Shown here: positions 19,855-62,094 of the stretch, one piece after another | Layout of the letters: each line of letters starts with the position of its first letter | Position numbering within the stretch: position 1 is the first letter of the stretch | Source: an uncultured Bacilli bacterium | GTDB taxonomy: Bacteria; Bacillota_I; Bacilli_A; RF39; UBA660 | Direction: 5' to 3' | DNA length: 64,000 nucleotides | Assembly (NCBI GenBank): GCA_944363935.1 | Contig: CALVVT010000073.1 | Location: 4,226 to 68,225, forward strand | Made by a program: the position numbers and the translations under genes | The notes under the pieces: generated by a model | Databases searched by the model: none | The model's input: the letters and a program-made list of their open reading frames with translations, nothing else | Told to the model about the DNA's origin: nothing

Positions 19855-20250
19855 CTATGATAACTGGTATGGATTATTTTGACTCCCATTACCTCCAGTT
19901 ATTTTAACCGCTTCATTATTACTATTAGTAATACCAATAGTTTCTAATTTCGCATCAAATGTTCCTTTATTTTCGACAATAATACTATATTCTACATAAT
20001 CTCCTTTTTCATATAAATTAGCTTCTAAACTTGCTGATAAATCATTATAAGTGTTTTTAACATTTTCTCCCGTTCCATTTGTATCAGTTACGTCGGCACT
20101 TATTATTTTAATATCCCAAGTACTACTAATATCAGTTGTCCCCGTAATATTAATACTTGTTTTAAAAGCCGCATAGCCTATCCCCATTAAACATAAAATG
20201 CATATTAAAATAAATATAACAATTTTATTTCTTCTTTTTTCCCTATACAT
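19855..20250 (-). CDS. Small secreted protein of the GIGYAAF family (TasA/SipW-cognate-like signal; C-terminal GNGSQNNPYQLS)
   Basis: 131 aa, MYREKRRNKIV..LMGIGYAAFKTSINITGTTDISSTWDIKI. Paralogous to 38317-38664, 32982-35899 and 60137-62094. Confidence 0.75.
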   Translation of the reverse strand: MYREKRRNKIVIFILICILCLMGIGYAAFKTSINITGTTDISSTWDIKIISADVTDTNGTGENVKNTYNDLSASLEANLYEKGDYVEYSIIVENKGTFDAKLETIGITNSNNEAVKITGGNGSQNNPYQLS

Positions 20251-20391
20251 AGTTCCTCCATAAAATTATTATTCACGTCGCTTATTTTATAATCATATAA
20301 ATTATAATTTAAAAAGCCCTTATAATCCACGACATTTTGTATCGTGGCACTAAAATTATTTATATGAAATAATATTTTTATTGGTGATACT

Positions 20392-20580
20392 ATGATAAAA
20401 CAATATAGAGAAAAATGTGGGTTTACTCAAGAACAATTAGCTGAAATTTTAGAAATAAGTTGGAGACAACTTCAAAGAATAGAAAAAGATGAAACTAAAA
20501 CTAAAATAAGCACATTAAAAAAAATAATTAAAGTTTTAAATATACCCGACGAAGAAATAATTAAATTAATGAAAAAATAG
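20392..20580 (+). CDS. XRE-family HTH transcriptional regulator (62 aa)
   Basis: GFTQEQLAEILEISWRQLQRIE helix-turn-helix. Divergently transcribed from the family gene 19855-20250. Confidence 0.75.
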   Translation: MIKQYREKCGFTQEQLAEILEISWRQLQRIEKDETKTKISTLKKIIKVLNIPDEEIIKLMKK

Positions 20581-20602
20581 CTATCAATTTTCCTGATAGC
20601 TT

Positions 20603-22294: not shown

Positions 22295-22324
22295 CTCACA
22301 CTACCTTTACTATATCATAAATAG

Positions 22325-24370: not shown

Positions 24371-24973
24371 TTAATATTTAATTATATACTTACCATATTT
24401 ATCATTTTTAGATGTTCCGGTCCAAACAATTAAATCTTCCACTATTAATTTGTTTAATAAATTAATTGCTGAAGTTTTTTTACGATTAATTATTTCAGCA
24501 ACTTCTGCTTCAAAATTTCTTTCGCCTTTTTCATATTCCAAACTTCTCACTTGTATGGAATTAAGTTTTATCGAAGAATCACCTTGTCTTAAATAAACTT
24601 CATCTTTATTATTACGAACAATAAAATTCATAACAGGATTTATATGAAATAAAATAATAGTATCTTTTTCATTTTTATTATTTAAAACATCAATTAATTC
24701 TATATTATAATTAGGTGTTGGTTTTAAATAATTAGTAACAACTTTTTGACATTCATTTAATTTATTAATACCATAAATATTAAAGCCTTCAATAGTACCG
24801 TCGTCTTTAATTCCAATTGCAATCACACCACCATTAGCATTTGCAAAAGAAGCAATTTCATTAGCTAATTCTTGATTACTAATTTTAGCACTTTTGCGAT
24901 CAAAATATAAATTTTCTTTAGTATTTGTTAAATAATCAATTGTAATACTAGGATCAAATTTTGAAATAGACAT
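24371..24973 (-). CDS. AlbA_2/Schlafen-like putative DNA-binding domain protein
   Basis: 200 aa; LYFDRKSAKIS...IASFANANGGVIAIGIKDDGTIEG matches the AlbA_2 (divergent AAA-4) domain signature. Confidence 0.6.
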   Translation of the reverse strand: MSISKFDPSITIDYLTNTKENLYFDRKSAKISNQELANEIASFANANGGVIAIGIKDDGTIEGFNIYGINKLNECQKVVTNYLKPTPNYNIELIDVLNNKNEKDTIILFHINPVMNFIVRNNKDEVYLRQGDSSIKLNSIQVRSLEYEKGERNFEAEVAEIINRKKTSAINLLNKLIVEDLIVWTGTSKNDKYGKYIIKY

Positions 24974-25078: not shown

Positions 25079-26296
25079 TTAACGACTATAAAATCTACTA
25101 CCTTCACCTGGAAGCTGGGTAAGCCAAGTTCTAGGATCCATGTGTGGCCCTCTACTTAAAGTAAAGAAATCTTTTAAATAACGGCCTTTAAATAATTTAA
25201 AATCCAAATGAGAACCAGAAGTACAACTATCATAACTAGGATTACCACCTTGCGTACCTATTTGAGTTGTATAATTAACTGTTTGTCCACTTGATACTGT
25301 AACCGTTTTTAAATGATAATAAACAGTTGTATAATCCCTACCATTAACATTGTGCAGGATATAGACAATATTTTTTCCGCAAGATTGATTTCGAGATATT
25401 GTTATAACCCGGCCAGCAGTTATCGCATAAACTGGGGCTCCTTCATAATTAGATATATCGATAGCATTATGATTATTACCATAATAGTTTTGCGTTACTT
25501 TACCTTGTGTAAGAGGAATATAAAATCCATTACTACCTCCACCAGTTACACTACCACCACCAGAAGATCCACTAGAACCTCCATCTCCAGTTGTTACTCT
25601 AGGTGGATTAAGTCTATTTTCACAAGTTTGCATATCTTCATTACCACGGCAACCCATACTTTTTAAAGTATTAACATAACTCATTAAGTTTTGATATTCA
25701 GCCTGATAAGTTTGAACATTATCATTAAGTTCGTCTATTTCTTTTGAAAGTTTATTAACAAGTTCTTGTAATTCTTTATTCTTTTCGTTTAATTCATTTT
25801 GTTTTTGAGAAAGTTCTTTTTGTTTACTTTCATGATTTTTAATCATTTTATTATACTGGCCCATAAGTTCGTCATTATAATCAGAAAGTTGTTCCGCTAC
25901 TGAAATTCGGTAAATAAAATCCGTAAAATCTTTAGCCCCAAATATATATTCTAAATAACTCATTTCTCCTTCAGATACTTGAACAAAAGTCATAATTTGT
26001 TTTATTTCTTTATCTTTAGTATCGATTGTTGTTTCTAATTCTTTAATTTCTTTTTCTAAAGAAGATATATCATTTTGCACAGTTTTTATTTCATTTTGAA
26101 TTTTATCTTTTTCCGCCAAAGCTGCTTCTTTTTCTTCTTCTGTCATTTCTTTTTTAGCTGTAGTACTCCGTTCTTGATTTAATTTTGCTTCCGCTTGGGC
26201 GATATATTCGTCTAAAGTTTCAGCTTTTATTACTAATGGAAAACAAATAAAAGTTAAAATCATTATTAAACTTATTATCGTAATTCTTTTTAACAT
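25079..26296 (-). CDS. Secreted coiled-coil protein with a C-terminal M23 (LytM) peptidase domain
   Basis: 405 aa. Signal peptide, about 200 aa of coiled coil, a Gly/Ser linker, then M23 motifs (HNAIDIS...YYHLK...GSHLDF). Confidence 0.8.
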   Translation of the reverse strand: MLKRITIISLIMILTFICFPLVIKAETLDEYIAQAEAKLNQERSTTAKKEMTEEEKEAALAEKDKIQNEIKTVQNDISSLEKEIKELETTIDTKDKEIKQIMTFVQVSEGEMSYLEYIFGAKDFTDFIYRISVAEQLSDYNDELMGQYNKMIKNHESKQKELSQKQNELNEKNKELQELVNKLSKEIDELNDNVQTYQAEYQNLMSYVNTLKSMGCRGNEDMQTCENRLNPPRVTTGDGGSSGSSGGGSVTGGGSNGFYIPLTQGKVTQNYYGNNHNAIDISNYEGAPVYAITAGRVITISRNQSCGKNIVYILHNVNGRDYTTVYYHLKTVTVSSGQTVNYTTQIGTQGGNPSYDSCTSGSHLDFKLFKGRYLKDFFTLSRGPHMDPRTWLTQLPGEGSRFYSR

Positions 26297-26375: not shown

Positions 26376-27569
26376 TTAACGATGGCTAAAATAGGCCCCT
26401 TCACTAGGTATTTGCGGAGCAACTGTTCTTGGATTAATTCTTCCACTATTAGGATTTCCACCATTAGCTACTCTATTTTCCCAACTATTACCAGCATTAT
26501 CAAATAAATTTAAATGAACATGGATTCCGCCAGAACATCTATCACCAGTATTACGGCCAGCCATTGAACCTATTTTCGTCATATAAGAAACGTTTTGACC
26601 AACTCTAACTGACCAACTAGAAAGATGCCAGTACGAAGTAATATAAGAGTGACCATTAATATTATGTTTTACATAAACTATATGATTTCCACAACTTGGA
26701 CTATAAGTAAGTAAAATAACCTGCCCATCAGCAATTGGATAAACTGGGTCTCCGGCTGTACTATTAGAAAAATCAATACCAGTATGATTTTCACCGCCAC
26801 CGTAAGAACGCCAACCATAATCACTAGTAACATAACCTTTTGATATTGGCATATAAGTTCCGTTTACACTGACTAAATTTCCCCCTCTTAAACAACTAGA
26901 AACAGTTTCATTACCACTACAACCTCTGGCTTTCATACTATTAATTAAACTTATTTGGGTTTTATATTCTTCTTCTTTACTAATAATACCAGATTGTAAT
27001 TTTTCAATTTCTTCACTTAATTTTGCTTCTAAAACAGTAAGTTCTTGTTGTTTTTTAGCAAGTTCATTTTGTTTATTAGATAAATCAACTTGCTTTTGTT
27101 CTAGATTTTTAACGTCATTATCATATTCTTCAATTAATTTATCATTATAATCAGAAAGCTGTTCAGCGACAGAAACTCTATAGATAAAATCTGTAAAGCT
27201 ACTAGCCCCAAATATATACTCAAGATAAGTTGAAGAACCTTCAGAAACTTGAACAAACTTCATTATTTCTTTAATTTCTTCGTCTTTCTTTTCAATTGAT
27301 TTTTGCAGTTTTTCAATATCTTTTTCTATTTGTTTAAGTTCTTCATTAATACTAATAATTTCTTCTTCAGCAGCTTCTTTATCTTTAATAGCTTTTTCTC
27401 TTTCTTGTTCAGTTAAAGATTTTTGTGATTTAGCAGCATTATAAGCATCACGATTAGCTTTAGCTTGAGCAAGTAATTCATTTAAAGTTGCTTCTTTAGC
27501 TAATACGGGAAAATTAAAAGCTAAAAAACTAAAAACTAAAACAAATAAAACTAATAAACATTTTTTCAC
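26376..27569 (-). CDS. Secreted coiled-coil protein with a C-terminal M23 (LytM) peptidase domain; tandem paralog of 25079-26296
   Basis: 397 aa with the same architecture (FVQVSEG..YLEYIFGA..; HTGIDFS..WHLS..HVHLNLF). Confidence 0.8.
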   Translation of the reverse strand: MKKCLLVLFVLVFSFLAFNFPVLAKEATLNELLAQAKANRDAYNAAKSQKSLTEQEREKAIKDKEAAEEEIISINEELKQIEKDIEKLQKSIEKKDEEIKEIMKFVQVSEGSSTYLEYIFGASSFTDFIYRVSVAEQLSDYNDKLIEEYDNDVKNLEQKQVDLSNKQNELAKKQQELTVLEAKLSEEIEKLQSGIISKEEEYKTQISLINSMKARGCSGNETVSSCLRGGNLVSVNGTYMPISKGYVTSDYGWRSYGGGENHTGIDFSNSTAGDPVYPIADGQVILLTYSPSCGNHIVYVKHNINGHSYITSYWHLSSWSVRVGQNVSYMTKIGSMAGRNTGDRCSGGIHVHLNLFDNAGNSWENRVANGGNPNSGRINPRTVAPQIPSEGAYFSHR

Positions 27570-30443: not shown

Positions 30444-31550
30444 TTAAAATTTATTTTTATATAAAAAATATTTAGTATTAGCGACCATAAAATAACCATT
30501 ATAACTAGCTAATACTTGTTTATAATTAGATTTTTTTTGTTTTTTCAGTCGTTTTAATTTTCTTTTCACTCGTTTTTTAGTTTGATTATTAAGTAAAATT
30601 AATAATTTTTTTTCTTTAAGTTTAAACTTATATCCTAAAAAATTTACCCCTTTATTTAAATCATATATTTGGGTTTTTTTATTTAAAGATAACCCTAATT
30701 TTTGAACCTTTCGATTAATCTCTACTAAACACTCTTTTAAAAATTCTTTATTATGATGAATTAAAATAAAGTCATCCATATATCTTATATAATATTTAAT
30801 TTGTAATTTTTCCTTAATAAAATGGTCTAGTTCATTTAAATAATAAATGGCTAAAATTTGACTCGTTTCATTACCAATTGGCAACCCTTTACCTTTTTTA
30901 TATCTAGGCAAATAATTTAGTTCTTGAAACTTACAAAAAATATCTGGGATGCTTTTCTGTCTTAATTTTTCTTTTTCTTTAGCTATTAAATTATCAATCT
31001 GATTATTAATATATTTAGCGTCAGTACTGTCGATAATATTTTTTAAAACATCAATTATTTCAAAATCAGGAATATCTTTAATTAATTTTTGTAATAAAAT
31101 TTCATGATTAATATTATAAAAATACTTACTAATATCACATTTTAAAACGTATATTTGATCATAATTTTGTTTTAATTTATTAATATATTTTTTTATATAA
31201 TAAATACCTGCTTTAGTACCTTTACCACTTCTAGTAGCAACATTTGTTTCCACTAATTTAGGAATTAAATAAGGAATTAAAACATATTTACTGATCAAAT
31301 GATTAACTATTTTATCTAAAATTCTTTCACTCATAACTATTCGGTATTTCGGTTCAGATATTAAAAATAAACTATATTGTCCGTGAGTATAAGTTCGAGA
31401 CTTTAATAAGTACAAAATTTTAGTTATATTAGAAGAAAAAGCCAGTTCAAATCTAACTAACTTTTGCTGATGACAGGTATTTAAACGAATTTTATAATAA
31501 ATTTTCAGTATTTTATCTATTGAAAGAAGATTATCATAAGTTATTTTCAT
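30444..31550 (-). CDS. Diversity-generating retroelement reverse transcriptase
   Basis: 368 aa RT domain. Motifs: EPKYRIVMSERILDKIVNHLI, the DGR-specific GLPIGNETSQILAIYYLNELD (I/LGxxxSQ in place of the group II QG) and YIRYMDDFIL (YxDD). There is no maturase or endonuclease domain. Confidence 0.9.
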   Translation of the reverse strand: MKITYDNLLSIDKILKIYYKIRLNTCHQQKLVRFELAFSSNITKILYLLKSRTYTHGQYSLFLISEPKYRIVMSERILDKIVNHLISKYVLIPYLIPKLVETNVATRSGKGTKAGIYYIKKYINKLKQNYDQIYVLKCDISKYFYNINHEILLQKLIKDIPDFEIIDVLKNIIDSTDAKYINNQIDNLIAKEKEKLRQKSIPDIFCKFQELNYLPRYKKGKGLPIGNETSQILAIYYLNELDHFIKEKLQIKYYIRYMDDFILIHHNKEFLKECLVEINRKVQKLGLSLNKKTQIYDLNKGVNFLGYKFKLKEKKLLILLNNQTKKRVKRKLKRLKKQKKSNYKQVLASYNGYFMVANTKYFLYKNKF

Positions 31551-32182
31551 TAACTTTTAATACTTTCTAAAACATATTTATCGTTAATTTTTTTATAATT
31601 ATAAGTTTTTAAAGTTCCATTATCTAATATGTTATTTAAATTATCTTTATTATATTCACCGATATCATTATTATCTAAATTATAAACATTATTATCTTTT
31701 ATATAAGCAATTTTTACATTTAATTCTAATTTATTATTATCATTAGTATAACCATATAATTTAGACACATATTTATTTTCACAAGAATACTTTTCTCTAG
31801 TAATAACGTCATTATCTAAATTATAAATATAACCATTATAAACATAATTTTGAACATTTGGCGCTTTAACATCACCAAGGATTTTTTTAGTACTTGTTTG
31901 ATAATCTTTTAAAGAAATTTTATCTTTTAATAAATTATCCTTATTCATTTGACCAAAAATTAAATCTAAAAGACTTTTATCTTCTAATTTATCGACATTT
32001 CCATCATTAATAACCGAGCATTCATTAACAGCAATCGCATCATACAAATCTTCAGCAACCTCGTGTTTTACTAAATTGCTAAAAGTTTGCGCTAGTTCTT
32101 TATTTTTTACTATCAATATTAATACTGTAATTAACACTATAATAATCAATAAAATAATAATTATTACTTTTTTATTCTTCAT
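31550..32182 (-). CDS. Membrane-anchored hypothetical protein encoded between avd and the RT
   Basis: 210 aa with an N-terminal TM and an Asn/Asp/Tyr-rich ectodomain. It is translationally coupled to avd (11-nt overlap) and to the RT (shared nucleotide). Confidence 0.5.
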   Translation of the reverse strand: MKNKKVIIIILLIIIVLITVLILIVKNKELAQTFSNLVKHEVAEDLYDAIAVNECSVINDGNVDKLEDKSLLDLIFGQMNKDNLLKDKISLKDYQTSTKKILGDVKAPNVQNYVYNGYIYNLDNDVITREKYSCENKYVSKLYGYTNDNNKLELNVKIAYIKDNNVYNLDNNDIGEYNKDNLNNILDNGTLKTYNYKKINDKYVLESIKS

Positions 32183-32525
32183 TACTAGTCTCCCTCTTTC
32201 TTAAACCATTAATCATTTTTCTTATTTCAATTAAAAATCTACCAATAACTGTAAACTGGTGATAACTTATTATTTTTTTATCCAATGAAACTTTTGTATA
32301 AAAGTCAAGCATCGAAAGTTCTACTGATAAATCTTTTAAATATTTATCTTTAATTCGTATACTAGTATTAATGTTATAAGCAAAAATGTTTTTAATTAAA
32401 GAATAACATGTTTTTTCAATATTGTTTTTTAATACAATTTCTTTTTTAGGATAATTAATAAGTAATTTATTAATATAATTAATTGTTTTATAAGAATTAT
32501 TTAAAATTTTAAAATTATAATTCAT
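32172..32525 (-). CDS. avd: Accessory variability determinant (Avd-like four-helix-bundle protein)
   Basis: About 118 aa starting at MNYNFKILNN with RBS GGAGA (the ORF track extends it to 32558). The size, basic composition and position between TR and RT match DGR Avd. Confidence 0.65.
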   Translation of the reverse strand: MNYNFKILNNSYKTINYINKLLINYPKKEIVLKNNIEKTCYSLIKNIFAYNINTSIRIKDKYLKDLSVELSMLDFYTKVSLDKKIISYHQFTVIGRFLIEIRKMINGLRKRETSNEE

Positions 32526-32767
32526 TTTTTCTCCTTCAATAAGTGTGGCTGGAGACAAAAAGTCTCCACCACTAATATAGCGATAGTTATATAAATACTT
32601 TAATAGTCATATAACGTCTATATTATCTTTTTAGGCTTTAATCCAAGGAATTAACCTTGTTTCCAATCTAAATTAGATTATTGCTTTCGCAACTACTTCC
32701 TCTGGTTATGAGCCGTAGCCAAATAACATCACGGTTCATTAGTAAATAATCACTAATTGTAGTAGGA

Positions 32768-32877
32768 AATTGGGCGGACGCCGTTGCTATTCCAAGTATT
32801 AGTGTTAGTGAGCTCGCCCGTGGCAGTCACGTACATCTCATTAGCATTGAACCAATTGTTGAAGTTCGACGGCGACA
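32768..32877 (-). repeat. DGR template repeat (TR)
   Basis: 110 bp, 95/110 identical to the VR. On the coding (minus) strand it encodes SPSNFNNWFNANEMYVTATGELTNTNTWNSNGVRPI, rich in AAC/AAT codons, and ends in GGCGTCCGCCCAATT. Confidence 0.92.
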
Positions 32878-35899: not shown

Positions 35900-36002
35900 T
35901 AACATACCTCCTTATTTTATTTAAGTATAGCACATTTGTTGGGGGTAATGCAAGTATCTTATTTAGAAAAATATTATTTTATAAAATTATGGTGGTGGTA
36001 CT

Positions 36003-44362: not shown

Positions 44363-44437
44363 AGTATCCCTCTTTTCCTTGCCATATCTTAACATAACTC
44401 CTATCTTTGTGTCAATTTAAAAAACGCTATAAAAGCG

Positions 44438-52935: not shown

Positions 52936-54963
52936 CTAACCGCGTTCTTCTTTATTATGACGCATGGCAATAGTAGCTTCGTTTACGGCATCGTCAACGG
53001 TTTTAATTTCGTCAACAATCATACTATAACCAATAGCTGCTCCAAAACCATGAGTTAATTTTTTAAATTCTTTATTTAATTTTCTAATATAAGCAATTAT
53101 TTCTTTTTCGTCACCACCAAGAACAAAGATTAAAAATTCATTTCCACTTGTTCTAATAAGTTCACTATTAGGTATTTGATTATTAATTAAAATACCAGCT
53201 GCTTCAACAATAACTTTATCACCTTCAGCATGCCCAAAATTATCGTTTATATACGCAATATTATTTAAATCAATAACAATTAATGCCTGTGGATATATTT
53301 CACTAGCATCCCATTTTTTAATGTTTTCATTTAAATAATTACGATTTTTAAGTGATGTTAAGTTATCAACATAACGTAATTTTTCAATTTTTGAGAATCT
53401 AGCATTATGATCTTTACGGTGTTTTATAATTCTTGAAGCTATTAATACTACTAATAAAATAACTAATAAAGCAAATACTGCTATTAAGATTTGTCCTAGT
53501 CTATTACTATCGTCATAGTTAAGAATTTTCGCATAACTATCATTAATTACTGCTTTACTATCAGTATAAGTTAAATAAAAGTTAAAGTAATTATAAAAAG
53601 TTTCATTAGCTTTATTATCTCTTACTGTATAAGTATAATCACTATCTAAACTAAAACTATAAATATTTTTAAATTTATGGAGTTTTGTTCTAATATAGTA
53701 ATCGTAATTATAATAATCAATTGCTGCTACTTCATTATTATCTAAATTTTTGATTAAATCTTCGATGTTATTATAAGTTTCTGTTTTTATTCCACTATCT
53801 TTTAAATAAGCATCTATTTGACTATCTTTAATTGTTAAAACTTTAGTATTTTCAAGAGAGTTAAGAGAATTTACAACTATACTATTACCTTCACCAGTAA
53901 TGATATTAACAACTTCGTCATATACTGATACAGTATTTTTAACATCGTTTTTAAAATTACTAATATTAGTATTATTAAAGATAAAATCAAGGTCTCCATT
54001 ATTAAAGTCTTCTACTAATGTATCAGTAGCTGAATAACGTTTATAATTTATTTCAATATCTGCACTTTTAGCAAAATTATTAACAAAACTATAATTAAAA
54101 CCTTGAAGGCCTTTTTTAGTTGTTAAATCAAATGGACTATTTAAAACAAAGCCATAGGTATATCTTTTACTTCTAAATTCAACTTGTTCTTTTTCTTCTA
54201 TTTCTTTAGCATCAAAATAAGTTTCTGATAAATGGCTATCAAAAGAACTATTAAATTTACTTTGCCATTTTTTATAATATTTTGTTAGAATGTTATTTAA
54301 TGTTTTATTATCCCCTAAAGTAATAACATAATCTTTACTATATTCATTAAAGTTATAGGCAATATATAAATTATCATTACTAACAATTGTTTCTAAATTA
54401 GCTAGTTTAGGAACAGCTATAGCATCGATATCAGTTGTATTCATAGCAGCAAACAAACTAGAAATGTTTTCATATTGTTTATATAAAACATTAGTAGCTT
54501 CACTTAAATAATTATTTATTTTTTGTTCGTCGTCTTTTAAAACACCTATTGTCATATTTTTAATACTACTTGCTTTAGCATAATTAGTATTAACTTTAGT
54601 TACTAAAGCATAGTTATCTTGATAAAACAATATATCATTTTTACTTACTTTATCAGTTAATTCTAATGCATAATCACTAGTATCAGAAGAAGATAATTTA
54701 TTAAATTCTAAATCGGTATCTTTTTCTAAATCGTCTAAAAAGTCAAATATTACACCAGTACCTGAAGTACTTAATACTGGAATATCAGATGGAACCGAAA
54801 AATCGATTAAATTATTTCGATTATCTTCAATCCATTTTTGTTCTTCAGCAGTTAAAGTGGTACTAGTACTTCTAAAATTAAAGTAATAAAAAGCACCAGC
54901 ACCACCTAAAACTATTAAGATTAAAACAATTAATAATATTTTTTTCTTACTCATTTGGTTCAC
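52936..54963 (-). CDS. Membrane sensor protein with a large extracytoplasmic domain and a C-terminal degenerate GGDEF domain
   Basis: 675 aa with an N-terminal TM, a ~450-aa periplasmic region and a second TM. The GGDEF fold has RTSGNEF in place of RxGGDEF. Confidence 0.7.
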   Translation of the reverse strand: MNQMSKKKILLIVLILIVLGGAGAFYYFNFRSTSTTLTAEEQKWIEDNRNNLIDFSVPSDIPVLSTSGTGVIFDFLDDLEKDTDLEFNKLSSSDTSDYALELTDKVSKNDILFYQDNYALVTKVNTNYAKASSIKNMTIGVLKDDEQKINNYLSEATNVLYKQYENISSLFAAMNTTDIDAIAVPKLANLETIVSNDNLYIAYNFNEYSKDYVITLGDNKTLNNILTKYYKKWQSKFNSSFDSHLSETYFDAKEIEEKEQVEFRSKRYTYGFVLNSPFDLTTKKGLQGFNYSFVNNFAKSADIEINYKRYSATDTLVEDFNNGDLDFIFNNTNISNFKNDVKNTVSVYDEVVNIITGEGNSIVVNSLNSLENTKVLTIKDSQIDAYLKDSGIKTETYNNIEDLIKNLDNNEVAAIDYYNYDYYIRTKLHKFKNIYSFSLDSDYTYTVRDNKANETFYNYFNFYLTYTDSKAVINDSYAKILNYDDSNRLGQILIAVFALLVILLVVLIASRIIKHRKDHNARFSKIEKLRYVDNLTSLKNRNYLNENIKKWDASEIYPQALIVIDLNNIAYINDNFGHAEGDKVIVEAAGILINNQIPNSELIRTSGNEFLIFVLGGDEKEIIAYIRKLNKEFKKLTHGFGAAIGYSMIVDEIKTVDDAVNEATIAMRHNKEERG

Positions 54964-55411
54964 CTACATTTGACCAAGATACTTTTTTAGCTTCTTTAGG
55001 GTGATAACCAATTACAGGATATATTTCACTATCTTCTTTAGTATTTAGATATATTTCAACATCATAATATTTTTTTAATTTATTACTTAAACCATCTAAT
55101 ACTGCATCAGATACTCCTTTAGCGGTATTAATATCAGTATCAGCATTAACTGTTACAATAAAGTTTAGAATTCTTCCTTCATTATGATAATCGACATCTG
55201 TTACAAAGTCATTACTACTTACAGCATCTTTAATATCATTTACTGTACTTTTAGATACTTTATAATCTTCAATATCTTCTAATCTATCACCATATTTATT
55301 ATTTCCAAAAAGGGGAATGATAAAAAATATGATAAAAAATAATAATAAAAGTAAAATAAATATTCCTGCTACTATACAAACTTTTTTATGTTTTTTTATA
55401 AAGTCTTTCAT
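54947..55411 (-). CDS. Membrane-anchored hypothetical protein
   Basis: 154 aa with an N-terminal TM. Confidence 0.4.
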   Translation of the reverse strand: MKDFIKKHKKVCIVAGIFILLLLLFFIIFFIIPLFGNNKYGDRLEDIEDYKVSKSTVNDIKDAVSSNDFVTDVDYHNEGRILNFIVTVNADTDINTAKGVSDAVLDGLSNKLKKYYDVEIYLNTKEDSEIYPVIGYHPKEAKKVSWSNVGEPNE

Positions 55412-55467
55412 ACCTTCACCTCTTATAAAATTATACTATATTTTAGTTCTATTTACAACTAATGACA

Positions 55468-55851
55468 TTAACTTTCGTCTTTAGATTCGTCATAATCAAA
55501 CTCAAACTGATTGTGACTAACTTCATAAGTTATTTTAACTTTGCCATTCATTTTACTATCATCACTTTTTTTAGGATTTAAAACTTTGTCTTCAGCTATA
55601 TAACCACCATCTATTAAAGTAGATATAGAAACTGATGTTTTAAAATTCTCTTCAGCTTTTAATGTATCAGTATCAGTTTGATCAAGAGCCCACTCTTCAG
55701 CGGCTTTTTCAATTAATTTAACTTGGTCTTCATAAGCTTTATTTCTTGAACCTTGAATTACTGAATTAATAGCTGGAAAAACTACTACAGCAATTAAAGC
55801 TAATATAGAAATAACTGCTAGAAGTTCAATTAATGTAAAACCTTTTTTCAT
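55468..55851 (-). CDS. Type IV prepilin / ComGC-like pseudopilin
   Basis: MKKGFTLIELLAVISILALIAVVVFP is a classic class III (prepilin peptidase) signal with the hydrophobic N-terminal helix. Confidence 0.85.
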   Translation of the reverse strand: MKKGFTLIELLAVISILALIAVVVFPAINSVIQGSRNKAYEDQVKLIEKAAEEWALDQTDTDTLKAEENFKTSVSISTLIDGGYIAEDKVLNPKKSDDSKMNGKVKITYEVSHNQFEFDYDESKDES

Positions 55852-55935
55852 AATTTCACGTTCCTATTCTATTTAAATTATAAAATATTTAAGACTTAAA
55901 GTCAATAAAACGTCAAAAAAAGTAGCTAATGGCTA

Positions 55936-56244
55936 CTAAAATTTCTTTTTTACAAATGTTTTAATTATTAAAACTTCAAAAACAATGTAAACTACTATGT
56001 AAACAGCTAGTAAAACATCATTAAATACTCCTAAATCAAAACTTTGTAAAAGTTCTAATATATTAGCAGGAATTAAAGTTAAAAAATCAAAAGCATCGTC
56101 TCTTAAAATATAAGTTTTTAAATAAGTGAATATTCTTAAAAATATATCAATTATAACAATAAAATATACAGCAGCATTAAAACTTTTATAAAAAACTATT
56201 ATTGCTAGTAAAGCAATGATAAAAATCATTAATTGAACAGTCAT
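55936..56244 (-). CDS. Small membrane protein
   Basis: 102 aa with three TMs. Confidence 0.4.
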   Translation of the reverse strand: MTVQLMIFIIALLAIIVFYKSFNAAVYFIVIIDIFLRIFTYLKTYILRDDAFDFLTLIPANILELLQSFDLGVFNDVLLAVYIVVYIVFEVLIIKTFVKKKF

Positions 56245-56942
56245 TTTGTACCTCCTATTATTTCGTCATATTCATGAGTAAAATCATTTAATTTATTAAT
56301 ATTATAGTAATTAATTTCTAATAAATAAGAATTAGTGTTTATTCCTTTACTAATATAATAATTAGTTAAATCAATAATTACTTTATTAATTTTATTATCT
56401 TTTTGATATAAATCAATTACTATATTATTTCCATTACTAACAGTATTTTCATAAAGTTGAGTAAAAGTTGTTAAAGGAATACTATATTCTTTATATCCTT
56501 CTTTTTCTATATCTTCAGCATTACTAATTAAATTGTAAATCATTTCATTATTGATTTTTAAAAGTTCTGGTTCTGTACTTGGTGTTAAATCTGGTATTTT
56601 ATACAAAACACTATTTTTATAGTACTTTTCATTATCTAAATATAAAATATATTTATCGTCATAAGCCATTCCATTTAAAGATGTATCTACTGTTTTATAA
56701 CTAAATTCATAAGACTGCATATCCTTAAAAGTTTCTAGTGGACTTGTTTTAGTATTTACTTTTTCTACTCTTGTAAAATTTAAATTAACAAATAAAATTG
56801 CTAGAAAGAATAAGATTCCCCAAATACCTAAAACAATTAAAGCATGTTTTTTAGGGTCATGCCAAGCCTCTTTAAATTTTTCCCATTTTGTTTTTTCTTT
56901 TTCTTCAGCCTCTATTTTTAATTCTTCTATTTCGTCATTCAT
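56241..56942 (-). CDS. Membrane-anchored hypothetical protein
   Basis: 233 aa with an N-terminal TM after an acidic cytoplasmic head. Confidence 0.4.
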   Translation of the reverse strand: MNDEIEELKIEAEEKEKTKWEKFKEAWHDPKKHALIVLGIWGILFFLAILFVNLNFTRVEKVNTKTSPLETFKDMQSYEFSYKTVDTSLNGMAYDDKYILYLDNEKYYKNSVLYKIPDLTPSTEPELLKINNEMIYNLISNAEDIEKEGYKEYSIPLTTFTQLYENTVSNGNNIVIDLYQKDNKINKVIIDLTNYYISKGINTNSYLLEINYYNINKLNDFTHEYDEIIGGTK

Positions 56943-57895: not shown

Positions 57896-57936
57896 TTTAT
57901 CACCTATCTTTCTAAATTATATTCTAGCATATTTTT

Positions 57937-60072
57937 TTAAAGTTTTAAAGGATTTAAATCAATATCAATCATTATTTTACTTTTAACATATTTATTTTTA
58001 ATAAATATAAGTTCTGGAAGTATTTCTTTAGTATTTTGATACTTTATAATTGTTTGAACATAATAAACATTATTTACTTTAGGCATTATATTAGGACTTG
58101 GTCCAAGAATAATATAATTTGGAAATTTATTTCTTAAATAATTAGTGATTTTTTCGGCTTCTTTATTTACTTCTATTTCATTTTTTCCACTAACACTTAT
58201 TTTCGTTAAATTAAAATATGGTGGATATTTTAAAGCTTTTCTAATTTTCATTTCTTCTTTATAAAATTCTAAATAATTATGATTAGAGGCACAAACTAAA
58301 CTATAGTGATTAGTATTAAATGTTTGGATAATAACTTCTCCTGGTTTATCACCTCTACCAGCTCTTCCAGCTACTTGATTTAAAAGTTCAAAAGTTCTTT
58401 CACTACTTCTAAAATCAGGAATATTTAAAGTACTATCTCCATTTATAACGCAAACTAATGTAACATTTGGAAAATCAAGACCTTTAGCTATCATTTGTGT
58501 TCCTAATAAAATACTATATTCATTATTTTGAAAGCTATTGATAATTTTTTCATGTGCACCTTTTCTTTTAGTAGTATCAACATCCATTCTAATTACTTTG
58601 TCTGTAAATTCTTCTTTTAAAAGTTCTTCTAATTTTTCAGTTCCCATTCCTAATGCATTAATGTTTTTACTTTTACAAATTGGACAGGTATAAAGTTTAG
58701 GAACCGTATAATTACAATAATGACATTTCATACTATTAGTGCTTTTATGATAAGTAAGTGGGATATCACAATTAGGACATTTATGAGTAAAGCCACATTC
58801 TTTACAAGTGATTATAGTTGAAAAACCTCTTCTATTAAGTAATACTATTACTTGTTCATTTTTAGCTAATCTTTCTTTTATTTTTTCTTTAACTAATGAA
58901 GAAAATACTCTATTACCTTTTTTAAATTCATTTTTCATATCAGTTAAATATACTTTTGGTAAATTTTGATTTACTCTTTTAGTCATAGTAAGTAAAGTAT
59001 AAACATTCATTTTAGCCCTAGTAAAACTTTCTATACTTGGAGTAGCACTGGCTAAAACTAAAGGACAGTTATGATATTTACTTCTTTTAATAGCTACATC
59101 TATAGCATTATATTTAGGCGTATTTTCCTGTTTATAAGTTGAGGAGTGCTCTTCATCTATTATAATAATTCCTAAATTAGTAAAAGGTGCGAATATAGCG
59201 CTTCTTGCTCCAATAACTACTTTAGCTTCCTTCCTATATACTTTACGCCATTCGTCATATTTTTCTCCGTCATTTAAGCGACTATGCATAATCGCTACTA
59301 TTTTTCCAAACCTTTTTTTAAAGGTATTAACAACTTGCGGAGTTAAACTTATTTCGGGAACTAGTAAAATAGCTTCTTTACCTTCTTTTATTATTTTTTC
59401 TATTAATTTTATATAAACTAATGTTTTACCACTACCAGTAACTCCATATAATAAATAAGGATTAAATTCATTTAATTTTACTCTATTAATTACTTTTGTT
59501 TGTTCTTCTGTTAAAGGATAATCGTTATTAGTTATTTCTTCGTCTTCATTAATTCGGTATACTTCTTTTTTTATTTCTTTAACAATATTATTTTGAATTA
59601 ATTTATTTACGGCATAACTTGATATTTTATTAAGATAGGTTTTATCATTTTTTCCTTCTTTTATCAAATCATATATTTCTTTTGTTTTTCCGGTTAAATT
59701 TTCTTCTTTAACTATTTCTAATACTGTTATATATTTTTTATTAACTACTTTATTATTTTTAGCTTTTAAACCACTAGGAAGCATACTTTGATAACAGCTA
59801 ATTAAAGGTGATAATGTTTTTTTACTGATGTATTTACCTAGTTCTAACATTTCTTTATTAATAACCGGGTTTTCGTCAATTATTTCTTTTATTTCTTTTA
59901 CTTCATAAGTTTCATTAAAATCATTATATACTTTTAAAACAAAGCCCTCGATTATTCTTTTTCCAAAAGGTACTCTTACTCTTACACCAACTTTAGTATC
60001 TTTAGGAACTTTATAAGTAAATGTTTTATCGATATTTTTAGCCATTATCTCTACTAATACATCTGCATACAT
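57937..60072 (-). CDS. priA: Primosomal protein N' (PriA helicase)
   Basis: 711 aa with GVTGSGKT Walker A, DEEH and the Cys4 zinc-binding cluster (CKECG...CPNCD...CHYCN...CPICKS). Confidence 0.92.
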   Translation of the reverse strand: MYADVLVEIMAKNIDKTFTYKVPKDTKVGVRVRVPFGKRIIEGFVLKVYNDFNETYEVKEIKEIIDENPVINKEMLELGKYISKKTLSPLISCYQSMLPSGLKAKNNKVVNKKYITVLEIVKEENLTGKTKEIYDLIKEGKNDKTYLNKISSYAVNKLIQNNIVKEIKKEVYRINEDEEITNNDYPLTEEQTKVINRVKLNEFNPYLLYGVTGSGKTLVYIKLIEKIIKEGKEAILLVPEISLTPQVVNTFKKRFGKIVAIMHSRLNDGEKYDEWRKVYRKEAKVVIGARSAIFAPFTNLGIIIIDEEHSSTYKQENTPKYNAIDVAIKRSKYHNCPLVLASATPSIESFTRAKMNVYTLLTMTKRVNQNLPKVYLTDMKNEFKKGNRVFSSLVKEKIKERLAKNEQVIVLLNRRGFSTIITCKECGFTHKCPNCDIPLTYHKSTNSMKCHYCNYTVPKLYTCPICKSKNINALGMGTEKLEELLKEEFTDKVIRMDVDTTKRKGAHEKIINSFQNNEYSILLGTQMIAKGLDFPNVTLVCVINGDSTLNIPDFRSSERTFELLNQVAGRAGRGDKPGEVIIQTFNTNHYSLVCASNHNYLEFYKEEMKIRKALKYPPYFNLTKISVSGKNEIEVNKEAEKITNYLRNKFPNYIILGPSPNIMPKVNNVYYVQTIIKYQNTKEILPELIFIKNKYVKSKIMIDIDLNPLKL

Positions 60073-60136
60073 CTTATCACTTCCTTATTAAATTCTACCA
60101 TTATAAGAGAAAAAAATCTAGCATTATTACTAGATT

Positions 60137-62094
60137 TTATAGACTTAACTGGTACGGACTTGAACTTGAACCATTCCCCGAAGTTATTTTGACATTTGGG
60201 GATAAGGTTGCTACAGGGCGGACGCCGAATGAAAAACCGCTACTTCCAGTAGTTGACATATTTCCTTTAGAAGTTATATAAATTGCAAAGGACACATATG
60301 GGTTTATTGTCCAATAATTTGTGCTATTAAATAAATAGTTTGTTAAATTACATTCATCATAATTATTACGTAACAAATTATTATTACTACATTTTTCAGT
60401 ATTAGAATTTGCCCGTAAATAATCACTAAAATTAATTAGTCCTACCTTTCCTTCCCATATATCACTATTTTCAATTGGAATAATTTCTTTTAATTCATAA
60501 TTAAACATCCCATTTTCATTTCCTATACCATAACCGTAATTAATTATTTGGTTTTGTGATAACAAGGTTAATTCATTACTATAATATTCTGTATTTAAAT
60601 ATGTATTTAATGTTGCTGTCCTCCATCTATCAGAATCCGCTTCATTCCATACCATATTATTAATAATATCTTTTTTTACTATTTTTATAGTGTTATCATT
60701 TGTATTAATTCGCACTATTCTCCATAGCTCATCATTAAAATTAATATAATTGTTTGGATTAGTTCCCCGATATGTATACACATTCTCTTCATATGAGTCT
60801 TTATATAACCCATCTCCACTTGTCACTAGTTGGAGACTATCAATAAATTCTTCCACTGTTTGTGGTATTGTTATATTATATGATGCACTTTCCATATTAA
60901 CACCATCACTTACTCTGGCTACTAATGTACCACTTTCCGTAAATTCTACTTCTTGATTTTGAGTTGCTGCAGTCCATGTACCATTATCTTTTTGATACTC
61001 GTATGTTAATCCTTCTCCTTCTGGATATGTTATAGTAACAGTTTTTCCATTATCTGTTTCTTCTTCACTAAAGGTCGGTACATTTAATTCTTTCGTACTT
61101 ACATTATATTCTTCACTTTCTACTTGTAGGTTATCTCTATTGGTTACTCTTACTTTTATTTTATGACTTGTATTTTGAGTAAGTCCTGTAAAGGTATATG
61201 TATTACTATCACCTGTTATATATTCCTCATTATCTATTTTATATTCGTATTTTACTATTTCTCCATCTTCTTCTATAGCTGTAGTTACAACGGTTATAGA
61301 ACTCGTTGTACTACTGGTACTTACATTATTTATAACTGGAGGCGTTGTATCTATTTTTCTAAATATCGCATAAAGTGTTACATTATTACTTGGCATACTT
61401 AAACTTTCTAAACCTACTGTTGCTCCTTTATCCGTATTCCATCCCATAAATTCATAGCCTGCTTTAGTTGCTGTATATTCTAAATTAACATTACTTCCTT
61501 CGGCTACATAATCATTTATAGCATTTGTGCTTTCTCCGCCATTAGTACTATAATCATAAGTTACATAATAATCATTAGCTGGTAAAGGATTATCACTATC
61601 TTGAGCTACATCTATACTTATATCTAAATCGACACTTATATTTTCTTCGATACTTGTTACATCACTATTAAATTCTACTTTAACTTGTAACTCTTTTGTT
61701 TCTTTACCTTTGATTACATCTCCTTTAGTTAGTCCTGATAAAGTAAAGGTTATATACTTATTTTCTTTATAATAAGTATTTATTTTCTCTATTCTCGCAT
61801 CTACACTTCCTCTATTTTCTATAGTTACTGTATATAATGCATAATCTCCAGGTCTTTTTAAACCAGTACTAAATGATGCATATAGTCCATTAGTATTATC
61901 ATAACTTGGTTCTTCGATATCTTCAGCTCCATGTAACTCACTTTCTATATTAGTTATTCTAACATCCCAGGTACTTGTTATATTACTTGTTCCTGTTATA
62001 TTTAATTTACTACTAAAGGCTGCATATCCTATTCCCATTAATACTAATATAGAACATAGCCCTACTATAATTAAATTATTTTTTTAGTTCGCAT
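60137..62094 (-). pseudogene. GIGYAAF-family large surface protein; paralog of the DGR target. The signal-peptide region is frameshifted at an A7 tract, a candidate phase-variable switch
   Basis: ATG (rc 62092-62094) with RBS GGAGGA gives MRTKKII then a stop. One extra A in the A7 run (fwd T7, 62079-62085) would give MRTKKNNLIIVGLCSILVLMGIGYAAF..., in frame with the 633-aa ORF. The C-terminus has FGVRPV and GNGSSSSPYQLSL. Confidence 0.7.

Follow-up and report, generated by a model that had tools for sequence, protein, structure and literature searches.

Four genes of very different length in the 64-kb stretch of DNA analysed here (the window) begin with the same N-terminal module. They raise the question of whether this module serves secretion and fibre assembly in the manner of TasA and its signal peptidase SipW, as a preliminary description had suggested, and of which of the four genes still encode a complete product.

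The gene family and its intact copy

All four genes lie on the minus strand, and their paralogy is well above chance, with all-against-all blastp E values of 6e-19 to 1e-33 over the N-terminal ~100-150 aa; the two large genes (972 and 633 aa) also share C-terminal similarity. A six-frame motif scan of the window recovered the N-terminal motif four times and the C-terminal motif four times, and no more, which confirms the four related genes of the preliminary description. Some of its details had to be amended: the quoted N-terminal consensus holds as a family motif, but the 131-aa member, the most divergent, fits it imperfectly; the C-terminal motif is real, but the tail GxG[ST]xxxP[YF] closes all four genes and not three, the 972-aa protein ending in a variant of it, GSGTIEDPFVVS; and the upper coordinate of the 972-aa gene is 35900, not 35899. 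The family genes are scattered singly among housekeeping genes.

The only intact copy in the window is the 972-aa gene (32982-35900, minus strand), identified by domain, blastp and N-domain profile evidence, which is the target of a diversity-generating retroelement (DGR). Its product consists of a signal/transmembrane (TM) segment, the conserved GYA|AFSS strand, the N-domain beta-sandwich (aa 1 to ~175; nt ~35376-35900), FN3 and PKD/OmpL47-type Ig modules, and a C-terminal C-type-lectin-like domain of the DUF6273 type (~nt 32982-34133). The 110-nt variable region (33054-33163) lies inside this last domain and is 86% identical to the template region (32768-32877), which sits between the target gene and the accessory gene, with 15 of 15 mismatches falling at template adenines. 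The rest of the cassette, also on the minus strand, comprises the accessory protein bAvd (32172-32558; PF22296, E 1.6e-12), a 210-aa ORF with no Pfam match (31550-32182) and the reverse transcriptase (30444-31550; RVT_1, E 1e-18). All three are kept in the related loci L005-L007, where the reverse transcriptase is 67-71% identical; L005 carries a ~980-aa orthologue of the target in matching FeoAB-XRE-target-Avd-RT synteny, and L006 and L007 carry ~980-aa orthologues with a matching cassette. The earlier proposal that one large member is diversified by a DGR is thus well founded.

Deletions, a frameshift and XRE partners

The second large gene (60137-62094, minus strand), recognised by domain matches and ORF analysis, encodes the N-domain, a Flg_new repeat, FN3/Ig modules and a C-terminal C-type-lectin-like domain of the DUF6273 type (nt 60137-60901). 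Together with the 972-aa protein, it bears out the earlier view that the large members carry Ig/FN3-like modules and a lectin-like end. The gene exists as first described, with 633 or more residues, but it is not open from the proposed start: read from the ATG at 62094, the frame meets a stop at codon 8, as the A7 run at 62079-62085, at codon 6, lacks one A needed to keep the frame. An A8 run would restore M-R-T-K-K-N-N-L-I-I-V-G-L-C, and the 633-aa open frame begins at an internal Met (62038) within the signal peptide. The identical A7 allele is carried by an independent ENA metagenome contig (L084), and the homologues P0008 and P0009 have intact N-termini. This A7/A8 frameshift leaves the gene either switched off in a phase-variable manner or dead, as a pseudogene.

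The two short genes, both on the minus strand, had been read as possible small major subunits of a fibre, a reading that ORF, N-domain profile and sequence comparisons do not sustain. The 131-aa gene (19855-20250) runs from the signal through the conserved strand into the N-domain, of which it keeps the first ~2/3; from there it continues in frame with the ~13 final residues of the lectin-domain tail (junction ...NNEAVKIT|GGNGSQNNPYQLS). Locus L037 has a 425-aa full-length member in the corresponding place, directly upstream of hrcA; in the window, SSB and a 108-aa ORF intervene between the 131-aa gene and hrcA. The 115-aa gene (38317-38664; the longest ORF starts at 38727, and the MNRRKK start at 38664 agrees with the family) is built alike: its signal, conserved strand and roughly half an N-domain lead, with the frame kept, into the tail of the lectin domain (...YALYTVT|LSPEVQIISGDGSENNAYQLQN). 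Its closest relatives are 700-890-aa genes in L021, L026 and L045, 71-75% identical over the first 94 aa, the one in L045 ending ...VTLSPKVKITGGDGSQTSPYQLSL. On the 182-position N-domain HMM, the 131-aa product covers positions 3-118 and the 115-aa product 1-93. Judged from these junctions, both genes are in-frame internal-deletion remnants of long members, and we rejected them as major fibre subunits on the ground that a partial N-domain is joined to a lectin-domain tail. True N-domain-only subunits of ~160-226 aa do occur in other genomes; the 64-kb window holds no intact N-domain-only gene.

We considered whether these short genes might nevertheless be functional, their donor strand and incomplete acceptor sandwich serving to cap, nucleate or poison fibre growth. 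They would then resemble TapA-like strand complementation or natural proteins consisting of only strand and lectin domain. Both genes have, in fact, retained an ATG, an RBS and an open frame, the 131-aa gene has kept its XRE partner, the deletion is in frame in 2/2 cases, and a third independent case is found in another genome (P0019, 101 aa, ending ...TITVENPYVIENA). Natural proteins in which DUF6273 directly follows the signal and a GYAA[FM] strand also exist (P0302-P0304 and P0313, all lacking the sandwich), and TapA acts by strand complementation (PMC10151520). However, stable folding is doubtful because 3-4 of the 8 sandwich strands are missing, no other assembly on record has an identical product, and no such gene is present upstream of feoA in L005. 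Two in-frame events, moreover, have a probability of ~1/9 by chance, a count subject to ascertainment bias because out-of-frame relics would show no tail. Overall, we regard a function for these remnants as improbable.

As described earlier, a divergent XRE-type gene on the plus strand accompanies three of the four genes: an HTH_3 gene (20392-20580) beside the 131-aa gene, an HTH_26 gene (36003-36212; 87% identical orthologue at the equivalent position in L005) beside the 972-aa gene, and a further HTH_3 gene (62219-62449) beside the frameshifted one. The last can be read from a TTG at 62135, and its probable start is 62219; a 76-aa product is called for its counterpart in L084 and L085. The 115-aa gene has no XRE partner. 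Across relatives, 20 of 90 testable members are paired in this way, including that of L005, a recurrence that echoes the control of tapA-sipW-tasA by SinR (PMC4292775).

Conservation and fold of the N-terminal module

An N-domain profile search returned 9,628 cluster representatives, 4,821 of them at E<=1e-10, in proteins of ~145 to >2,000 aa, and in nearly all of the 150 best matches listed the domain starts at residue ~1. In an alignment of 223 family N-domains, the best conserved columns are GYAAF, LxIxGT and PGD, and the TM segment is poorly conserved. The predicted cleavage context G-Y-A|A-F-S-S parallels G-T-W-A|A-F-N-D of TasA, including Phe at P2', a residue with which TasA is poorly cleaved by LepB and handled by SipW (PMC10269814). 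The N-domains are acidic (pI 4.2-4.3, 12-16% D+E), with Phe at mature position 2 and, in the window family, Ser at position 4. Profile-profile comparison (hhalign) with TasA profiles gave probabilities of 43-63%; the best, between the 223-sequence profile and Bacillus TasA (63%, E 7e-5), covers the first 74 columns only, and places GYAAFSS on GTWAAFND with the PGD..N.G motif also in register.

Other searches were less favourable to a TasA relationship. TIGR04088 and the NCBIfam TasA/BsaA-type models matched no window protein at curated thresholds, and neither Pfam nor NCBIfam gave a significant TasA, camelysin or SipW-cognate match to these proteins. Pfam Peptidase_M73 reached 13.6 bits on the window N-domain and was found in 7 of 18 relatives (best E 1.1e-5), with CARDB, DUF11 and DUF7507 matching the same motif region equally. 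Fold searches with the N-domain returned generic beta-sandwiches, with TasA not among the matches listed. The SipW-cognate character proposed for the N-terminus gains indirect support from the cleavage context, the conservation pattern and the peptidase-adjacent relatives described below, but none from the curated HMMs, and the hhalign probabilities are only 43-63%.

These results leave room for two other readings. According to one, the genes encode ordinary secreted or wall-associated multidomain adhesins, processed by Sec and signal peptidase I, that open with a CARDB/DUF11-like Ig sandwich unrelated to TasA-type systems, the peptidase neighbourhood of small relatives being irrelevant to the large window genes. 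Two things speak for it: the weak Pfam matches, which fall on CARDB, DUF11, DUF7507 and HYDIN-like Ig domains as often as on Peptidase_M73, and the unmatched curated TasA and SipW-cognate models. Against it, the large proteins and the small peptidase-adjacent ones fall in one HMM family with the same signal/strand motif, LepB-type peptidases disfavour Phe at P2' (PMC10269814), and the synteny of peptidase and DUF5305 recurs across Bacilli and Clostridia; we hold this reading to be the least probable of those considered here.

The other reading is that of an uncleaved signal anchor: the helix would remain membrane-embedded in type II topology, with the conserved segment and the sandwich as a stalk close to the membrane, and the adhesins would be monomeric, without polymerisation. 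The AF2 model does show one long helix running without a break from residue 3 to residue 28 (TM), followed by a low-confidence stretch at residues 30-38, into which the putative donor strand falls, and a confident 8-strand sandwich. Membrane anchoring is common for surface-protein display in small-genome gut Bacilli, and the hosts appear to be such organisms, labelled 'Tenericutes'/CAG:822. The window, moreover, is without a peptidase, and in the loci examined the large members never stand beside one. However, the conservation of GYAAF and LxIxGT right after a poorly conserved TM segment is a pattern that a cleavage site with a functional strand would be expected to leave and a stalk would not; G-Y-A|A obeys the -3/-1 rule; and the identical motif occurs in small members adjoining a dedicated signal peptidase I. 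We consider an anchor of this kind unlikely, if the more serious of the two readings.

DUF6273 domains in relatives also follow a full N-domain (~415 aa) and, once, a type IV pilin N-terminus (P0342).

Peptidase loci of relatives and known systems

Neither Pfam nor phmmer found an S24/S26 peptidase among the window ORFs, in agreement with the preliminary description, and the 64-kb window holds no DUF5305 gene. We fetched nine peptidase loci of relatives (7 genome, 2 metagenome) from low-GC gut Bacilli and Clostridia. In seven of them (L022, with nine tandem members; L064, with three; L073, L075, L080, L081 and L083), phmmer with SipW identified proteins of 380-399 aa immediately downstream of small family members that carry the same signal/strand motif as the window genes. 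The four peptidases scanned matched Peptidase_S26 and TIGR02228 (archaeal-type signal peptidase I; 94-105 bits, cut-off 51.85) and scored 65-74 bits against the SipW model; the remaining three are close homologues. N-terminal to the peptidase domain are ~250 aa of hydrophobic segments, making these proteins polytopic. The next gene is homologous in 7/7 genome loci (phmmer), and DUF5305 by Pfam in 3/3 scanned. Two more loci, L086 (from human gut, with 29% GC, six tandem members and a peptidase) and L087, came from a search that started with the peptidase; there too, small members stand directly upstream of it. A single HMM family embraces Clostridia-type small members from E ~1e-26 and reaches 1e-77, with Bacilli-type small members down to 2e-60. 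All peptidase-adjacent members seen are small, none being a large one, and among the loci examined no genome had both a large member and the peptidase; complete N-domain-only genes and large members do stand together in the closed genome OZ007038.1 (L011, L012, L017, L030, L034).

On these sequence comparisons, we lean, by a little, towards a role of the shared N-terminus in secretion and assembly, as a module of the TasA superfamily type that is nearest to the recently described AbpX-like systems in locus organisation. We infer a pathway of cleavage, strand donation, fibre formation and XRE regulation, in which the basic n-region and hydrophobic helix would direct the protein through Sec and a dedicated archaeal/SipW-type signal peptidase I, which in this genome would lie outside the window, if present, would cut after G-Y-A. 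The new N-terminus, A-F-S-S-x-L-x-I-x-G-T-S-N-I-x-S, could then form an amphipathic strand to be donated to an adjacent subunit's acidic beta-sandwich of ~130 residues, giving a surface fibre. Its shaft would consist of the N-domain-only proteins of ~160-226 aa that are frequent in relatives, often in tandem arrays beside the peptidase. Long members might join or cap the fibre through the same module, displaying Ig/FN3/PKD/Flg_new spacers with a C-type-lectin-like (DUF6273-type) binding domain at the distal end; in the 972-aa member this domain is rewritten by the adjacent DGR. Regulation, member by member, probably falls to the divergent XRE repressor-like genes. Of the modular fibre/adhesin system first proposed, the paralogy of the module, the domain content and the DGR are borne out, but not the small major subunits in the window.

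AbpX-like loci of the TasA superfamily encode minor subunits, tip proteins, a 10-TM signal peptidase I and a DUF5305 accessory protein; their subunits have a pI of ~4, Asp and Glu make up ~15% of the residues, mature position 2 is aromatic, and larger 'tip' proteins with the subunit module are predicted (bioRxiv 10.64898/2026.01.04.697558). The relatives, compared by locus description, likewise combine several small acidic subunits, whose conserved N-terminal strand is aromatic at mature position 2, with a polytopic signal peptidase I (~10 TM) and DUF5305. The window genes differ in being dispersed singly among housekeeping genes and not clustered with a peptidase, in being XRE-paired, and in the great length of their passenger regions, which in one case include a DGR-diversified lectin domain; mature position 4, Ser here, is acidic in AbpX and TasA. 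With Bacillus TasA/CalY the family shares a signal peptide ending small-aromatic-Ala|Ala-Phe, the PGDxxxxxFxxxNxGxL motif, an XRE-family regulator near structural genes, as SinR, and a dedicated archaeal-type signal peptidase I, known on our side from relatives. Differences are the PF12389 and NCBIfam TasA/SipW-cognate models, unmatched at threshold, an N-domain of ~130 residues without the helical insertions of TasA, and a relatives' peptidase fused to a ~250-aa polytopic domain, whereas SipW has 190 aa. Haloarchaeal tat-fimbriae (TafA/C/E, TafD peptidase, TafG DUF5305) also place a dedicated S26 peptidase and DUF5305 beside small donor-strand subunits, and deletion of the cluster's signal peptidase abolishes fimbriae (PMC11821415). 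They are, however, archaeal and use the Tat pathway, the n-regions of the window family being Lys/Arg-rich and Sec-type, and their peptidase differs in topology, having 4 TM helices and the peptidase domain at its N-terminal end.

DUF6273/C-type-lectin folds are known among DGR targets (PMC10743442), and in the literature searched we found no paper mentioning both DGRs and TasA. In Bacteroides type V pili a DGR likewise rewrites a ligand-binding C-type-lectin-like end opposite a fibre-assembly-like module (bioRxiv 10.1101/2024.11.15.621889), but the assembly module of the window family seems TasA-superfamily-like and not a type V pilin, and its host is an uncultured low-GC Bacillota member. 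In the IgA peptidase of Thomasclavelia ramosa (PDB 9QA6; PMC12237041), the C-type lectin-like domain is N-terminal, dispensable for catalysis and without an assigned function there, whereas that of the window family is C-terminal, apparently ligand-binding and, in one paralogue, hypervariable.

Four paralogues and their altered members

The family singled out in the preliminary description is real. All four minus-strand genes, namely those encoding 131 aa (19855-20250), 115 aa (38317-38664) and 972 aa (32982-35900), and the frameshifted gene that yields a 633-aa ORF (60137-62094), are linked to one another at E 6e-19 to 1e-33 in an all-versus-all blastp of the window ORFs, and each carries both end motifs. 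A six-frame motif scan, in fact, found exactly four copies of G-[IV]-G-Y-A-A-F and exactly four of the G-x-G-[ST]-x-x-x-[PA]-[YF] tail in the window. The setting is ordinary chromosome of about 27% GC (hrcA-grpE-dnaK-dnaJ, ssb, feoAB, leuS, pyk, fmt, priA, tig), and 24 kb of it gave no megablast match in plasmid and phage collections.

In the gene at 60137-62094, the frame opening at ATG 62094 closes after seven codons because the A run at 62079-62085 has seven residues and not eight, and the 633-aa ORF begins at a Met within the signal peptide. Since an independent ENA metagenome contig (L084, at about 2025-2031) carries the identical A7, we regard it as an allele rather than a read error, and an assembly artefact is ruled out as the cause of this frameshift. 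Two close homologues (P0008 and P0009) retain an intact M-x-(K)-R-T-K-K-N-N-L-I-I-L-G-L-C start, and the other paralogues have runs of A5-A6 at the equivalent codons. The A7 run could be a phase-variation switch, or it could mark a fixed pseudogene.

The suggestion that the two small members are major fibre subunits did not withstand our analysis, as both are in-frame internal deletions of long members. Their matches to the N-domain HMM (the N-terminal part common to the family, comprising signal/TM segment, GYAAF strand and beta-sandwich) cover only positions 3-118 of 182 in the 131-aa gene and 1-93 in the 115-aa gene, so that three to four of the eight sandwich strands are absent; their C-terminal parts correspond to no more than the final 13-22 residues of the long members' lectin-type domain, the tail xLxSxxxLxGxG[TS]xxxPYxI being the normal end of about 45 full-length members; the closest relatives of the first 94 residues of the 115-aa gene are genes of 700-890 aa (71-75% identity); and the position just upstream of hrcA, held by the 131-aa gene in the window, is occupied by a 425-aa member in the related locus L037. 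The 131-aa junction (near 19893; ...NNEAVKIT followed by GGNGSQNNPYQLS) compares with the N-domain of the relative L036 (...NDAVKITFSG...) and with the end of the 633-aa gene (...NVKITSGNGSSSSPYQLSL), the microhomology VKIT being common to both sides, and the 115-aa junction (near 38358; ...YALYTVT followed by LSPEVQIISGDGSENNAYQLQN) compares with the end of the relative L045 (...VTLSPKVKITGGDGSQTSPYQLSL). Genuine N-domain-only genes, of 160-226 aa and ending in ...LxYVQxx, are common elsewhere, and the closed genome OZ007038.1 has them alongside large members (L011, L012, L017, L030 and L034). In both mini-genes the RBS, start codon and open frame have been preserved, P0019 is a third case of this sort, and in four further proteins (P0302-P0304 and P0313) the signal and a GYAA[FM] strand lead into a lectin domain with no sandwich between them; with so many strands missing, however, we consider it quite unlikely that the mini-genes are expressed and act as strand-bearing fibre caps instead of being relics. 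Exact-sequence look-ups found no product identical to the 131-aa, 115-aa or P0019 proteins, and an assembly artefact behind the two in-frame deletions is conceivable. With the small genes taken as deletion products of long members, these two "small paralogs" are best annotated as remnants of deletions, and the frameshift of the 633-aa gene should likewise be flagged.

Two genes separate the 131-aa gene from hrcA (18785-19496 altogether), one for SSB (19152-19496) and the other a 108-aa ORF without Pfam match. In loci L037 and L071 a family member is found about 300-400 nt from hrcA and no SSB homologue was detected in between, and the two genes may represent an insertion tied to the rearranged 131-aa locus.

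The pairing of three members with XRE regulators was likewise borne out, in that divergent genes with HTH_3/HTH_26 domains (E 1e-13 to 1e-15) are located 70-142 nt upstream of the family genes when the longest ORFs are used, the gap at the 633-aa gene being about 124 nt if the XRE start is at 62219. By blastp, none of the three XRE proteins is a close paralogue of another, and the four upstream regions contain no common operator or inverted repeat, only AT-rich palindromes that are not shared. Of 90 relatives that could be tested, 20 also show divergent XRE pairing, those at the orthologous positions in L005 and L061 among them. Such an arrangement parallels the control of tapA-sipW-tasA by SinR (PMC4292775), and by analogy the XRE genes might control the family members next to them.

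The N-terminal module and its likeness to TasA

A profile of the N-module matches 9,628 cluster representatives (708 of them at E<=1e-30), and in the best 150 of these 9,628 matches it begins at residue ~1 nearly always, in proteins ranging from ~145 to >2,000 aa. The family amounts to about 9,600 clusters at 50% identity, and has no Pfam or NCBIfam model. In an alignment of 223 N-domains, conservation is highest at GYAAF, LxIxGT and PGD, and lower in the membrane helix. The AF2 model of the N-domain (pLDDT 81) has a TM helix at residues 3-28 and an eight-strand sandwich at 46-165, and in this monomer residues 30-38 fall below pLDDT 50, which would be compatible with their being a donor strand, even though it is not proof of it.

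Curated models did not place these proteins within the TasA family. TasA, camelysin and BsaA models from curated HMM libraries had no match to the window proteins, TIGR04088 gave no match at E <= 0.1 in the four window proteins or in five small relatives, and PF12389 (Peptidase_M73) reached 13.6 bits on the 972-aa N-domain (E 0.062, 21 residues only), below its 22.5-bit gathering score. PF12389 also matched weakly in 7 of 18 family members (best E 1.1e-5), and one relative, P0023, has a precomputed match to it. The PGDxxxYxxxVxNxG stretch has sub-threshold matches to Peptidase_M73, CARDB, DUF11 and DUF7507. In profile-profile comparison, hhalign gave 43% probability over 38 columns for our alignment A2 against a 20-sequence TasA profile, and 63% (E 7e-5, 74 columns) for the 223-sequence family profile against ~110 TasA sequences; the latter alignment begins at the signal peptide, extends as far as the PGD motif, and places GYAAFSS opposite GTWAAFND. 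Among PDB sequences, hmmsearch with the N-domain profile returned only spurious matches (E >= 0.2).

The proposed SipW-like cleavage context, on the other hand, held well, G-Y-A/A-F being present in all four window genes and nearly invariant in the 223 N-domains; TasA itself is cut at T-W-A/A-F, a sequence checked against PDB 8AUR. If cut at GYA/AF, the N-domains, which have a pI of 4.2-4.3 and 12-16% D+E, would carry Phe at mature position 2. AbpX-like subunits are similarly acidic (pI ~4), with a donor strand bearing an aromatic residue at mature position 2 (bioRxiv 10.64898/2026.01.04.697558), but mature position 4 of our N-domains is Ser or Thr, which departs from the AbpX-like pattern at that site. 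Phe at P2' makes TasA a poor LepB substrate (PMC10269814). That the family consists of ordinary adhesins processed by SPase I, with a first domain of the CARDB kind, has the sub-threshold CARDB match and the silence of TIGR04088 on its side, and against it the P2' Phe and the recurrent peptidase/DUF5305 neighbourhood of small relatives; we deem it improbable.

Two other surface systems were considered and rejected. For type IV pilins or pseudopilins, no N_methyl (PF07963) match was obtained in the four genes, and the G/F-T-L-I-E signature is absent by inspection. For sortase-assembled pilins, the proteins end in ...NPYQLS, ...PFVVS and the like, without LPXTG, hydrophobic tail or basic end.

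Peptidase loci in relatives and the case for fibres

As already noted in the preliminary description, the window encodes no SipW-type peptidase: S24/S26 proteins are absent among its ORFs (Pfam, phmmer), and neither does it contain a pair of polytopic SPase I and DUF5305 genes. ORF 48344-48946 was discarded as a SipW candidate (phmmer E 0.054), having no Pfam match and a similarity that lies in a hydrophobic or low-complexity region. A scan of species-representative genomes with a closer sequence set (A4) gave 79 loci, nearly all from MAGs of uncultured gut "Bacilli", "Tenericutes", CAG:822 or Ca. Coprosoma, often with several family loci per genome. The ORFs of these loci were searched with what we take to be the B. 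subtilis SipW sequence, and this query matched proteins of 380-399 aa in seven loci (L022, L064, L073, L075, L080, L081 and L083), in each case directly downstream of small members (176-226 aa), of which nine stand in tandem in L022 and three in L064. The four peptidases that were scanned match Pfam Peptidase_S26 and TIGR02228 (archaeal-type SPase I, SipW subfamily) at 94-105 bits (cut-off 51.85), with ~250 residues of hydrophobic segments preceding the peptidase domain, and the remaining three are close homologues of these; a simple hydropathy scan counted about 6-10 hydrophobic segments in the relatives' peptidases. The gene after the peptidase is homologous in all seven loci, and is a DUF5305 gene in the three scanned (PF17231, E 1e-15 to 1e-22). 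A metagenome search from the peptidase side added a human-gut contig of 29% GC (L086), in which six tandem small members and a peptidase are followed by a gene of ~374 aa, and a second locus (L087) with one member, the peptidase and then a gene of ~350 aa. In a more distant locus, L090, a classical ...GAAFA/AWDSS... subunit precedes the same kind of peptidase.

An arrangement of exactly this kind has been described for AbpX-like members of the TasA superfamily. AbpX-like loci, known from Archaea and Bacillota, combine major and minor subunits and tip proteins with an unusual 10-TM SPase I and a DUF5305 SPase-accessory protein (bioRxiv 10.64898/2026.01.04.697558), and in the tafi system the cluster peptidase is genetically needed for fibre formation (PMC11821415). 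Because of this peptidase/DUF5305 context in relatives and of the motif logic, we accept the SipW/TasA-like reading as the best explanation; membership in a curated TasA family is no part of its basis. In the mechanism that we favour, with moderate confidence, the proteins would be exported by Sec and cut at GYA/AF by a polytopic peptidase of SipW type that is dedicated to them and works with DUF5305, the new N-terminal strand would be donated to the sandwich of a neighbouring subunit to build a fibre, and the long members would serve as lectin-tipped adhesins, one of them DGR-diversified. None of the genomes covered was seen to carry both a peptidase cluster and large members. The absence of the peptidase from the window speaks against this mechanism, and it would suit adhesins that simply stay in the membrane by an uncleaved signal anchor; with a near-invariant GYAAF and the dedicated peptidases of relatives to be weighed too, we find such anchoring rather unlikely.

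Tandem arrays recur in these relatives, with nine small paralogues at L022 260-6507, six at L086 5896-9854 and four members of mixed length at L010 6001-11189, and therefore imply that fibre subunits duplicate and diversify rapidly at single sites.

Long members, the retroelement and the wider picture

A Flg_new repeat and FN3/Ig modules were identified in the 633-aa protein, and FN3 and PKD/OmpL47-type modules in the 972-aa protein. Over their C-terminal ~250-380 residues the two proteins are homologous, and this region has further homologues in proteins that mostly carry PF19789/DUF6273. Assignment to the DUF6273 (PF19789) C-type lectin-like domain was confirmed by both membership and CTLD fold, the CTLD being modelled for a C-domain paralogous to that of the 972-aa gene. 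DUF6273, whose fold is C-type-lectin-like, has been documented as a target of DGRs (PMC10743442), and has been described as an enlarged CTLD whose function is unassigned (PMC12237041). The preliminary description was also right that one large member is DGR-diversified, with RT, bAvd and a TR/VR pair all present at the 972-aa gene: after the gene come TR, bAvd, a conserved 210-aa ORF and RT, the RVT_1 and bAvd domains were found, and the 110-nt TR/VR pair, whose VR (33054-33163) lies at the end of the lectin-like domain, has its mismatches at TR adenines (15/15). All of L005-L007 retain the cassette, and in L005 the wider gene order FeoA-FeoB-XRE-target-Avd-ORF-RT is preserved as well. The 210-aa ORF (31550-32182, between bAvd and RT) has no Pfam match, and because it is conserved in these cassettes (46-52% identity in L005-L007) it could be a DGR accessory gene that has so far escaped recognition.

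Other family members bear DUF285/BspA-like repeats or Cys-rich ends, and because the passengers differ so much the N-module looks like a general mounting device. Many DUF6273 proteins of ~310 aa (P0294-P0301 etc.) have a third kind of N-terminus, which starts with a TM helix and has the motif A-x-T-Y-F-P-S-N-x-V-T-Y-D-N-x-x-S-G-L-x-S-x-N-V-Q-x-A-I-D-E-L-Y; it is conserved, and distinct from both TasA-like and type IV pilin N-termini.

TasA-type donor-strand fibres have mainly been known as biofilm matrix scaffolds built of one small subunit. The components found here are of kinds already known (a TasA-superfamily locus type, a DGR, the DUF6273 CTLD, XRE regulators), and what is new is their combination, in which a TasA-type module is the universal N-terminus throughout a large adhesin family that lacks a model and belongs to uncultured gut Bacillota, together with a lectin tip under DGR control and a visible gene turnover by slippage and microhomology deletion. 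Such a signal/strand module suggests a universal "plug" for C-type lectins, BspA-like LRRs and Ig/FN3 stalks, in uncultured gut Bacillota with small genomes. The DGR adhesin would link TasA-superfamily fibres with DGR-driven ligand evolution, a link, like the combination of TasA module and DGR lectin itself, of which we found no description in the literature searched. Taken jointly, it is possible, although we hold this only tentatively and think it less probable than otherwise, that low-GC gut Bacillota (CAG:822/'Tenericutes' MAGs) build TasA-superfamily donor-strand fibres with modular adhesin tips drawn from a large, fast-turnover repertoire that shares one signal and donor-strand module, that one tip lectin is continuously re-written by the DGR, that members are switched by homopolymer slippage and local XRE repressors, and that fibres are capped or terminated by mini-gene products or 'strand-only + lectin' proteins. 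If true, no TasA-type fibre with a DGR-diversified adhesin would have been described before, as far as the literature searched goes, and Gram-positives would have their counterpart to the DGR-diversified tips of type V pili. Experimental work has as handles the predicted cleavage site GYA/AF, the candidate peptidase and DUF5305 pair, and an enlarged CTLD that has a homologue in the T. ramosa IgA protease, namely the unexplained domain at its N-terminus.

Public short-read contigs with family genes (L001-L004, L084, L085 and many of the 79 loci) often end in or just past the N-domain, and those with the window's exact trigger factor are 2 kb long and stop right after the XRE gene, at the family gene; because the paralogous N-module breaks assemblies, the size of the family in MAGs is probably underestimated. 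Enzymes of c-di-GMP metabolism are often near AbpX-like loci (bioRxiv 10.64898/2026.01.04.697558), whereas the window's GGDEF diguanylate cyclase with a solute-binding domain (52936-54963) is ~5 kb from the nearest family member. Other genes of the window encode tandem PcsB-like paralogues (25079-26296 and 26376-27569; coiled coil plus Peptidase_M23, 40% identical to each other), a Schlafen AlbA_2 protein (24371-24973), a Fic/DOC protein with a C-terminal wHTH (41688-42779) and a 448-aa protein with a Tat signal (43049-44395). Finally, several small minus-strand ORFs are grouped between fmt and the GGDEF gene (54947-56942). One of them, of 127 aa (55468-55851), has a prepilin N_methyl motif, its neighbours of 154, 102 and 233 aa have no Pfam match, and the group is probably a ComG-like pseudopilin/competence operon apart from the adhesin family.
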